Source: Candidatus Aenigmatarchaeota archaeon (GTDB taxonomy: Archaea; Aenigmatarchaeota; Aenigmatarchaeia; QMZP01). From it: a stretch of 13,963 bases of DNA. Below are positions 745 through 2,412 of the stretch, one piece after another. Below the pieces are notes generated by a model. That model was given only the letters and a program-made list of their open reading frames with translations, was not told the DNA's origin and made no database searches. How positions within the stretch are numbered: the first letter of the stretch is position 1; the number at the start of each line of letters is the position of its first letter. The stretch covers positions 1-13,963 of the forward strand of contig JAVZYR010000016.1 in the NCBI GenBank assembly GCA_038999435.1, in the 5' to 3' direction. Made by a program: the position numbers and the translations under genes.

Positions 745-930
745 TGGGCCCGCCCGGATTTTCACTAGAAACCCTCAAGGTTTCCAGCCATCCGGGAGCT
801 GTTTCGCTTCGCTCCACAACGCTTCCGGAAGCGTGCCGCGAGCGCTTTCTTCTTGAAAGAAAGGGCTCATTTGAACCGGGGTCTCGAGCTCCCAAGGCTC
901 GGATGCTAGACCAAGCTACACCACGGGCCC
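745..930 (-). tRNA. tRNA-Pro(TGG) with 111-nt T-loop intron
   Basis: After removing 759-869: GGGCCCG TG GTGT AGCTTGGTCTA GCAT C CGAGC CT-TGG-GA GCTCG AGAC CCCGG TTCAAAT CCGGG CGGGCCC A = 75-nt cloverleaf; no encoded CCA. Confidence 0.95.
759..869 (-). other. tRNA-Pro intron at 59/60, string of four hairpins
   Basis: T-stem CCCGG/CCGGG, central helix TTCA/TGAA, AAT at both splice sites (relaxed BHB/BHL). Hairpins: GAGCCCTTTCTT..AAGAAAGCGCTC, ACGCTTCCGGAAGCGT, GGAGC..GCTCC, CTGGAAACC..GGTTTCTAG. Confidence 0.88.
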
Positions 931-1007
931 ATATAAATAAAATTGTTTTAATTAAATAAACTCAAAGAACACCTATTGAGATAAAACTATTAAAATTTTT
1001 GCAAACC

Positions 1008-1020
1008 CAAGCTTTTTAAA
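1008..1020 (+). promoter_or_regulatory. Putative archaeal BRE/TATA promoter for the 1041 gene (leaderless)
   Basis: CAAGCTTTTTAAA with TTTTTAAA ending 20 nt before the ATG; the region is AT-rich, so specificity is low. Confidence 0.4.
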
Positions 1021-1040
1021 TTATTTGTTGAATACAAAAA

Positions 1041-2093
1041 ATGAGAAGCATTCTCGTTGTGTTAATTTTATTTATTGTTGCACTTTCTGGTTGCATACAA
1101 TATAATGAACAATCCGCAAATATATCTGAAGAAAATACAATACAATCAGGATCCCAATCTGAAATTAAAATTATAAATGAATCGATAGAAAATGAAGAAT
1201 CTATATCGAAAGAACCTTTTATTGTTTTTAATTTTAAATTTAAAAATGAGACATGTCTGTTAAATGGTGAAATATACCTTAATGATATTTTTTTAGGAGA
1301 AACATATGAAGGTCGTTATAATCTCACATTAACAAAATTTGAGCAATTCAAAAATAAGTCTGGTGATACACAAATAGTTTGTATTCAAGGCAGATATCCT
1401 TCCTGTTTCAGCGAATATAAAGGATGGTATTTTAAAGTATGTTGGTTTGTTAATATAACCAAAAGTGATTTTGAAATAAATTTATTACCAGTTTTATTTG
1501 AAGCAGAGATTACTCCAAGATGGCCGAGTTATTGTTATGAATATCGAAATTTTGTAAAACCAGAAAATATTTTAGATAAAATTAATGAATGGAAAGAAAT
1601 TGGGGTTTTAAATAAAGACATAAAAAGCAATATAGAATTTTTATGGAGTAAATCAAGTTTAAATGTAATATACTCAAAAGATTTTTGGATCTCAGGTGAT
1701 GCAGATTGGTGGAAACTGCCAAATGAAACATGGAATGACGTTGGCGATTGTGAAGATTGGTCAAATTTATTAATTTCACTTATCAAGGCTTATAATTCGT
1801 CAGCCAAATGCTATGCTATCGCATTGATCGATCATATTACAACAGTTTGTAAGTTTGATGAAGAATATCCGATTGAATATATTTTTTATGACCAGAAAAA
1901 ATTTTTCATAAGAGAAACGAGAAGTTATTATGACTATGATGTTAAGTTCAAGCTTCATAATTGGCTTAATACATATTTCAACCAATATGGAATCTACTCA
2001 AAATTCAGAAATGTAACATGTGCTTATGACAACGATGAATATTTTGAATTCAGAAATAATGACGAATTTCTCGAATGGTTAATGAATTTATAA
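1041..2093 (+). CDS. Secreted/lipid-anchored protein with C-terminal transglutaminase-like (Cys-His-Asp) domain
   Basis: Hydrophobic N-terminus ending in lipobox-like LSGC; W..P.ETW...GDCEDWS.L followed by DHIT and FYD; many N-x-S/T sequons; visibly AT-rich. Confidence 0.75.
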   Translation: MRSILVVLILFIVALSGCIQYNEQSANISEENTIQSGSQSEIKIINESIENEESISKEPFIVFNFKFKNETCLLNGEIYLNDIFLGETYEGRYNLTLTKFEQFKNKSGDTQIVCIQGRYPSCFSEYKGWYFKVCWFVNITKSDFEINLLPVLFEAEITPRWPSYCYEYRNFVKPENILDKINEWKEIGVLNKDIKSNIEFLWSKSSLNVIYSKDFWISGDADWWKLPNETWNDVGDCEDWSNLLISLIKAYNSSAKCYAIALIDHITTVCKFDEEYPIEYIFYDQKKFFIRETRSYYDYDVKFKLHNWLNTYFNQYGIYSKFRNVTCAYDNDEYFEFRNNDEFLEWLMNL

Positions 2094-2135
2094 ATCTCAG
2101 TTTTTGCAATTATTATTTCTGTTTATTTCTATGAA

Positions 2136-2412
2136 AGCCCCGGGAGGGATTCTCTCTGGAAACCCTCAAGGTTTCCAGCCATCCGGGAGCTGTTTCGCTT
2201 CGCTCCACAACGCTTCCACTCTGGAAGCGTAAGCTCCCTCTTGCTCGCACGCTTTTTGCCTAAAGCGTGCCCGCGAGCGCTTTCTTCTTGAAAGGTTTTG
2301 GAAGCGGCCAGCTCCTTCTTTCCGCGAGCACTTTCTTCTTGAAAGAAGGGGCTCTTTGAACCCTCAACCTATCGCTTACGAGGCGATTGCTCTACCATTG
2401 AGCTACCGGGGC
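2136..2412 (-). tRNA. tRNA-Thr(CGT) with 205-nt T-loop intron
   Basis: After removing 2150-2354: GCCCCGG TA GCTC AATGGTA GAGC A ATCGC CT-CGT-AA GCGAT AGGTT GAGGG TTCAAAT CCCTC CCGGGGC T = 72-nt cloverleaf; no encoded CCA. Confidence 0.95.
2150..2354 (-). other. tRNA-Thr intron at 59/60, modular hairpin string homologous to the tRNA-Pro intron
   Basis: 2159-2217 identical to 768-826; 2271-2294 identical to 836-859 and repeated with one mismatch at 2322-2345. Splice motif is relaxed (TTC/GAG helix, AAT bulge before T-stem). Confidence 0.85.

Follow-up and report, generated by a model that had tools for sequence, protein, structure and literature searches.

Two interrupted tRNA genes in the window

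The window analysed here is the 13,963-nucleotide (nt) contig C16 (JAVZYR010000016.1) of a Candidatus Aenigmatarchaeota archaeon, a tiny archaeon whose genome assembly (G000; 549 kb, 30 contigs) is 86% complete. The same stretch is present in contigs of one hot-spring metagenome study. Two genes on the minus strand, tRNA-Pro(UGG) and tRNA-Thr(CGU), are each interrupted in the T-loop between nt 59 and 60 by a long insert assembled from recurring modules. We consider it probable that both are true archaeal tRNA introns, spliced by proteins, and that they belong to one multi-copy, modular family. The two genes are laid out as follows:

870–930, minus: tRNA-Pro(UGG) 5' exon, nt 1–59, ending UUCAAA; anticodon loop CUUGGGA, read by eye
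759–869, minus: Pro intron, 111 nt, comprising U (869), module A (836–868), CACGCUUCC (827–835), module F positions 1–59 (768–826) and the private tail UAGUGAAAA (759–767)
745–758, minus: tRNA-Pro(UGG) 3' exon, comprising U60, T-stem 3' strand, acceptor 3' strand and discriminator A; an oligo-T run then follows
2355–2412, minus: tRNA-Thr(CGU) 5' exon, ending UUCAAA; Rfam tRNA match of 44.1 bits over model positions 7–64
2271–2354, minus: Thr intron (205 nt in all), first part, comprising a 94% copy of module A (2322–2354), AAA and a B-like end (2300–2321), AAAAC (2295–2299) and module A positions 10–33 (2271–2294)
2150–2270, minus: Thr intron, second part, comprising module C (2223–2270), AGAGU (2218–2222), module F (2154–2217) and AGAA (2150–2153)
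2136–2149, minus: tRNA-Thr(CGU) 3' exon

Uncorrected, the Pro gene is misplaced by ARAGORN and the Rfam tRNA model matches the Thr gene only as far as the T-loop. Removal of the inserts gives a clean tRNA-Pro(tgg) of 75 nt and tRNA-Thr(cgt) of 72 nt by ARAGORN, in agreement with an earlier note on this DNA, which had proposed from the letters alone that excision at T-loop 59/60 restores valid cloverleaves. The stretches of 59 nt (768–826 = 2159–2217) and 24 nt (836–859 = 2271–2294) that the note reported as common to both inserts are indeed exact. Such similarity goes far beyond what chance would give: the intron-bearing Pro gene finds 35 matching places in its own genome, with E values from 1e-5 to 1e-94.

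The inserts are richer in G+C (0.54 for Pro, 0.55 for Thr) than the contig (0.387), and both fold stably, at -44.3 kcal/mol for Pro (z = -2.43 against dinucleotide shuffles) and -86.2 kcal/mol for Thr (z = -3.41). No group I, group II or box C/D identity was found by Rfam, either at the gathering score or, over three loci (L012 covering both window introns), at E ≤ 1. Unconstrained minimum free energy folds of whole precursors pair the T-arm with the intron, and were set aside as uninformative on the splice motif.

A relaxed splice motif at position 59/60

Both precursors can be drawn with a relaxed bulge-helix-bulge (BHB) motif of the hBH or bulge-helix-loop (BHL) type. The T-stem would form the outer helix, while U54-U55-C56(-R57) would pair with (Y)GAR located 2 nt before the intron end. 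The 3' cut would lie in a 3-nt bulge, A-A-U60, and the 5' cut (A58-A59/N) in a loop beside the first hairpin. The tRNA body could still form, since the G+C-rich hairpins fold on their own. In the window, this H-helix maps as follows:

872–875, minus: Pro H-helix 5' strand, U54 U55 C56 A57; partner intron 761–764 (UGAA), four of four pairs; 3' bulge A760-A759-U758
2357–2360, minus: Thr H-helix 5' strand, U54 U55 C56 A57; partner intron 2152–2155 (AGAG), three of four pairs, one of them U-G; 3' bulge A-A-U60

Across the genome, nt 54–57 form at least three of four pairs with intron positions n-2 to n-5 in all 25 complete inserts (four of four in 8, three of four in 17). By our own arithmetic a random 4-mer reaches three of four pairs about 15% of the time, and the pairing was not a criterion of the tRNA scan described below. 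The bulge A-A-U60 is found in 22 of the 25. Twelve inserts have the ending of module F in common; the other 13 end differently, and the helix is kept all the same. Position n-5 follows R57 where it is paired (A57:U, G57:C, G57:U), and in Pro-UGG the F end is unchanged but for three substitutions, which create UGAA, the perfect partner of UUCA. Alternative registers giving the same mature sequence, compared by hand, form poorer pairing or disrupt the T-stem. The relaxed hBH/BHL motif, with the T-stem as outer helix, a 3-nt bulge at the 3' site and a central helix, is recognised in 25 of 25 complete inserts, and the earlier note's description of homologous, hairpin-built introns at 59/60 is supported. 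A strict hBHBh' motif, in which a 4-bp helix lies between two 3-nt bulges with a flanking helix on either side, was found only for the 19-nt intron of Ala-UGC.

Inserts throughout the tRNA gene set

Unaided detection in the whole of G000 returned about 10 tRNAs with ARAGORN and 25 Rfam matches, mostly weak or partial. Genes were collected by a scan whose only requirements were a T-stem, a T-loop motif, an acceptor stem able to pair and a product that ARAGORN accepts once the content between nt 59 and 60 is removed. This yielded 29 genes, 22 with a 59/60 insert, to which six were added, either manually or by removing a second insert. We curated isotype labels outside the window by eye, because ARAGORN often miscalled multiply interrupted genes. 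Of the resulting 35 curated genes, 27 hold a 59/60 insert (25 complete, 2 cut by contig ends), and the set divides as follows:

3 of 35 genes: tRNA genes without any interruption
18 of 27 inserts: family of the window Pro and Thr introns
3 of 27 inserts: second family, with the common motif GAGCU(A/U)CCGCUUC
6 of 27 inserts: short and unrelated, 11–35 nt

Complete inserts span 11–306 nt, 11 of the 25 being longer than 129 nt. Excision restored an ARAGORN-valid cloverleaf directly in 22 genes; another 3 required removal of a second insert.

BLAST of the two window inserts against G000 gave 24 regions, every one of them inside a tRNA or rRNA gene and in the orientation of the host RNA (placement read by eye). 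The many T-loop copies that the earlier note suggested looking for are present, in 18 T-loops; the family is not limited to this loop, as copies also lie in two tRNA-Val D-loops and in 23S rRNA:

C3:7277–7423: D-loop copy, modules A and B, in tRNA-Val(UAC)
C18:604–741: D-loop copy, modules A and B, in tRNA-Val(GAC)
C8:~322–533 (L040), minus: 23S rRNA insert of 211 nt built of Pro/Thr-family modules, in the hairpin loop between model positions 180 and 182

The 23S insert is probably a spliced rRNA intron. A BHB-like motif read by eye places two AAA bulges around CUG/CAG, with an adjoining 12-bp helix.

A reading of the interrupted genes as pseudogenes, or of the inserts as repeat-made assembly artefacts, is highly improbable. 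Two contigs do end within T-loop inserts and public contigs break at the modules, but 27 of the 35 tRNA genes would have to be dead with no spare copies: each anticodon found occurs a single time in G000, and no second 5' exon of Pro-UGG or Thr-CGU is present in the 86%-complete assembly. Furthermore, exons are intact, cloverleaves are valid and the splice motif is kept in every complete insert. In public assemblies of four runs (X1–X4) from one hot-spring study, k-mer contigs enter each insert from unique flanks by 14–39 nt and agree with the window without differences. Under a rule of 31 letters across a junction, only the Pro 3' junction, covered by record 1 of run X1, counts as formally bridged out of the four.

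Summed contig depth over the modules (801–867 and 2141–2207; X1–X4) is about 100-fold higher than over the flanks (998.8 versus 8.19 in X1). As this exceeds the roughly 35 module matches in G000, other strains or organisms on site may carry the family.

Modular construction of the introns

The module map was made by BLAST of six cassettes onto the inserts, with 16 genes mapped and two more read by eye. Cassettes combine freely, and copies are 91–100% identical across 16 genes with differing tRNA bodies. The core, A then F (109–112 nt), forms the insert of Pro-UGG, Ile-UAU and Glu-CUC. In Thr-CGU the order is A, B-like end, truncated A, C and F, the first four elements of which also occur in Arg-UCU. 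The Leu-UAA insert consists of eight pieces over 306 nt, while module F is present twice in Lys-UUU and Ser-CGA. Mapped family inserts range from 89 to 306 nt, with a module content that differs from gene to gene.

Most internal cassettes end in GGAGCUNACCGCUUCC, and joins fall there, which fits shuffling by recombination at a common junction. In the fold of the Thr insert, GGAGCUNACCGCUUCC is complementary to the start and middle of module F. Nested splicing, with a BHB per module, was considered and rejected, since a strict scan of 8 precursors found no more motifs within the long introns than in shuffled sequences. The 76-nt module G has one UGAUG and two CUGA but lacks guide spacing (by eye) and has no Rfam match, and was not retained as a box C/D or K-turn element.

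The purine arm of the module A hairpin, GAAGAAAG, is followed 8 nt later in module B by its exact mirror, GAAAGAAG (e.g. 2300–2354). This is the layout for a pyrimidine-purine-purine intramolecular triplex, as in bacterial intrastrand triplex repeats, motifs which PMC4666352 associates with genome instability in bacteria. Here the resemblance is of sequence alone, and the Pro intron has no mirror tract. The tract could equally serve as an alternative pairing partner. A mirror-symmetric AAAGAAA tract follows the hairpin in the related genomes G012 and G027 as well.

Comparison with related genomes

Forty relatives were searched, among them G001 (same genus) and G012 (another genus of the same family). 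By BLAST, 39 have no match to the Pro/Thr family, and G012 shows only a weak 28-nt match within rRNA genes. From G001, a genome 71% complete, 26 tRNAs were recovered from stretches chosen via Rfam hits; seven have 59/60 introns, which measure 10–49 nt, share the ending G-R-A-A-R and include none of the Pro/Thr family. Orthologous 59/60 sites in G001 and G000 compare as follows:

Thr-CGU: none in G001, 205 nt in G000
Thr-UGU: none in G001, 117 nt in G000
Ala-GGC: none in G001, 178 nt in G000
Initiator tRNA-Met (iMet): none in G001, 255 nt in G000
Arg-UCU: none in G001, 163 nt in G000
Pro-CGG: 10 nt in G001, 178 nt in G000
Glu-CUC: 12 nt in G001, 109 nt in G000
Ser-CGA: 38 nt in G001, 144 nt in G000

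In another relative, G041, Pro-UGG is uninterrupted and adjoins the same HIT gene. Empty orthologues of both window genes therefore exist, Thr-CGU in G001 and Pro-UGG in G041. On this comparison the 59/60 site is old in the genus, and the long family is either new to the G000 lineage or lost from the other. As G001 has short 59/60 introns, some copies may have replaced older introns, with no empty loop needed.

Orthologous 5' exons of G000 and G001 are about 90% identical, below the identity among the intron copies. The earlier note had the introns moving recently between tRNA genes and targeting the T-loop. The 18 occupied T-loops, the 91–100% identity and the family's absence from G001 favour recent movement, although upkeep of uniformity would also fit. 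Similarly, the family sits repeatedly at 59/60 as targeting would have it, but the same pattern is expected if only spliceable insertions survive.

The introns might be kept for a function, either as circular RNA that binds protein or acts as a sponge, or in protecting the T-arm from integrating elements. The latter possibility has already been published (Randau and Soll, summarised in PMC4090602), the G+C-rich folds are stable, and a hairpin with a mirror purine tract is found in three genera, where the spacers differ. Nevertheless module content varies freely between genes (89–306 nt), the sister species G001 lives without the family, Rfam matches nothing even at E ≤ 1, and the one module with box C/D-like letters has no guide spacing by eye. 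A retained function thus seems unlikely.

A hairpin repeat across the order

G012 has long T-loop introns of its own (L081, L082, L086), opening with a similar pyrimidine/purine hairpin, CUUUCUUU...AAAGAAAG, and ending GAAAA/U; related hairpin copies lie in its rRNA genes (L032, L034). Across the order the hairpin pattern CTTTCTT-N3-7-AAGAAAG has a patchy distribution, ranging from 0 to 28 occurrences per genome against 0–4 for the reversed control. It was counted 20 times in G000, 22 in G012, 19 in G061, 10–28 in all 5 genomes of family f4 and 0 in G001. In G027 (L090–L109) the hairpin, together with a downstream CCAAAGAAAC purine tract, is present in 28 copies, in tRNA introns and between protein genes. 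At 2 of 20 loci examined (L092 and L105 stand out) a copy lies in frame inside a long open reading frame (ORF), read as ..LSLEKK.., and one of these ORFs resembles a pseudouridine synthase. The combination of hairpin and mirror purine tract recurs in three genera with differing spacers. Exact-pattern scans with two modules gave 0 hits in viral contigs and 0 in JGI metagenome contigs; a 21-nt exact match in a Verrucomicrobia genome was taken as chance.

Rickettsia palindromic elements, bacterial repetitive extragenic palindromes (REP) and MITEs (miniature inverted-repeat transposable elements) are small hairpin repeats scattered in a reduced genome, and can sit inside genes. The G027 hairpins in frame in two ORFs resemble the Rickettsia elements. 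Unlike all three kinds, the G000 copies are without exception in stable-RNA genes, in sense orientation and presumably removed as RNA. It is possible, if doubtful, that the hairpin cassette is a selfish repeat of this type acting at the DNA level, inserting widely and surviving in stable-RNA genes only where the tRNA intron endonuclease EndA can remove it; a genome parasite would then have given rise to the introns as a by-product. Such a view shares much with the reading of the inserts as a family of spliced introns, the main difference being the copying agent. The patchiness of the pattern (0 in G001 versus 10–28 in the other genomes named above), the G012 introns and rRNA copies with their similar hairpin, and the G027 hairpins between protein genes and within ORFs all speak for it. 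Against it, 24 of 24 BLAST regions in G000 fall in RNA genes and are co-oriented, no terminal inverted repeats are seen when intron ends are compared by eye, and the family has no linked transposase. The need for an H-helix accounts equally well for the GAAT repeat at the junctions, and any homology of the G027 element to the modules of G000 is a matter of architecture, not of alignment.

In a wider form of the same idea, the tRNA and rRNA introns of this DPANN order might descend from a selfish, DNA-level, triplex-capable hairpin cassette that blooms and vanishes by lineage and lands anywhere, in-frame sites of protein genes included. In stable-RNA genes it would last only at places that a broad-specificity epsilon-type EndA can excise, T-loop 59/60 being a safe harbour where the parasite becomes an intron. 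We put this forward tentatively.

Candidate enzymes for cutting and joining

An EndA fragment at a contig start (C7:3–524) matches the catalytic domain of the tRNA intron endonuclease. Its 174 C-terminal residues align over their whole length with residues 219–387 of the ARMAN-2 epsilon2 EndA (4FZ2; E = 4e-55). A full-length relative of 394 aa, 75% identical to the G000 fragment, aligns with 4FZ2 residues 12–387 (E = 1.8e-99). EndA homologues of about 400 aa were found in 38 of the 40 relatives searched, extending the epsilon-type endonuclease beyond ARMAN-2 to the whole order. Many relatives also have a second, shorter EndA-like gene of about 185–265 aa. RtcB is present at C15:747–2054 (PF01139, 568 bits). 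A three-unit epsilon-type EndA would cut the precursors and RtcB would join the exons; RtcB would probably circularise the intron as well.

RtcB could in principle also ligate an excised intron into another T-loop, with reverse transcription and recombination into the genome to follow. Every copy is co-oriented with its host RNA, in keeping with spread at the RNA level, yet a search of the 86%-complete assembly found no reverse transcriptase domain, and no CCA is encoded after the Pro or the Thr gene of the window. We regard this route as very unlikely.

Probable splicing and spread of the family

We read the introns of G000 as a known kind in an extreme, modular and recently amplified form. 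The anatomy of the inserts, the motif, both enzymes, the copy number and the family's absence from G001 are direct observations. The family would have spread, and would still be reshuffled, through DNA-level events at GGAGCUNACCGCUUCC, namely ectopic recombination or gene conversion together with tandem duplication, with the 59/60 site acting as a filter that lets copies survive.

Several points weigh against this reading. Splicing itself is something we infer from sequence. Our own strict scan found no hBHBh' motif at the Pro and Thr junctions, and in 12 of the 25 inserts, Thr included, the H-helix consists of U-G, U-A, C-G and a mismatch. For the two D-loop copies, folds and inspection by hand gave no convincing BHB-type motif, no register producing a central helix. 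The EndA gene is cut at the contig start, so that its N-terminal broad-specificity loop is unseen, and a PF02778 search elsewhere in the assembly was negative. Homology arms in the T-loop are only about 8 nt and about 3 nt, short for ordinary recombination, and the high identity of copies could reflect concerted evolution instead of recent spread. The sampling of G001 via Rfam hits favours intact genes, at 71% completeness. Finally, the order of modules within introns rests on the original assembly, because only one of the four junctions is formally bridged and public contigs break at repeats.

Relation to known introns

The introns of ARMAN-2 (PMC3239211, PMC12397907) are the closest in mechanism, with the same 59/60 site, relaxed hBH/BHL geometry, the T-stem as outer helix and a three-unit endonuclease, and in vitro cleavage of an hBH intron at 59/60 is known for the ARMAN-2 enzyme. 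Many tRNA genes are disrupted in both genomes: a reported 56% in ARMAN-2, at various positions, against 27 of 35 at one position in G000. Unlike those of ARMAN-2, the G000 inserts are modular, reach 306 nt and include 18 members of one family.

The transposed introns of Thermoproteales (Fujishima et al. 2010, via PMC4090602 and bioRxiv 10.64898/2026.10.13.758758) are likewise near-identical introns in differing tRNAs and positions, and such a distribution implies copying after tRNA divergence in both cases. As expected of a transposed family, G000 has similar introns in differing tRNAs, several sites and host RNAs, and orthologous sites that are empty in relatives. Families whose members are at least 80% identical take up 28.3% of 272 intervening sequences in Thermoproteales (same sources); in G000, two families account for 21 of 27 T-loop inserts, and the introns are 5–10 times longer, consist of shuffled cassettes and are found in rRNA too. 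A tRNA-Trp intron with a box C/D RNA nested inside it (PMC4090602) is similarly long and structured within a tRNA gene, whereas the G000 inserts have no C/D architecture or Rfam match, and their content differs between genes.

Introns at 59/60, relaxed motifs, the epsilon enzyme and intron families common to several tRNAs are already in print. The literature searched gave no account of modular introns in the T-loops of DPANN archaea. Beyond that literature are the length, the cassette architecture, the saturation of a single non-canonical site, the rRNA cassettes and the availability of a sister genome for comparison. The published length range of archaeal tRNA introns, 11–129 nt (PMC4090602), is more than doubled. 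A 2026 census of Asgard archaea weighed copying, mobile elements and reverse transcription, and the intron route "remains open" (bioRxiv 10.64898/2026.10.13.758758). G000 appears to offer copying caught in the act, with long near-identical introns, cassette-wise recombination, tandem amplification, and a sister genome with empty or short sites. These long introns explain the low yield of standard detectors in such genomes, only about 10 tRNAs; incomplete DPANN tRNA sets point to undetected disrupted genes (PMC5829648).

Other interrupted tRNA genes

A third interrupted gene in the window had escaped the earlier note:

1–246, minus: gene read as tRNA-Gly(UCC); 5' part 171–246; T-loop insert from 170 downward, of the second module family, cut off by the contig start

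Its insert contains a 55-nt unit in 2.4 tandem copies (34–165, 100% matches). Rfam gives a weak match at C16:164–240, and the 3' exon lies outside the contig.

A gene at C4:11632–11979 (L046), read as tRNA-Gln(UUG), combines an anticodon-loop intron of second-family units with a T-loop intron of the first family. The anticodon-loop intron holds box C-like (CUGAUGA) and box D-like (CUGA) letters. The initiator tRNA-Met of G000 (C26:3232–3637) and that of G001 (L070) both have the anticodon loop CCCAUAA, with C where U33 is nearly universal.

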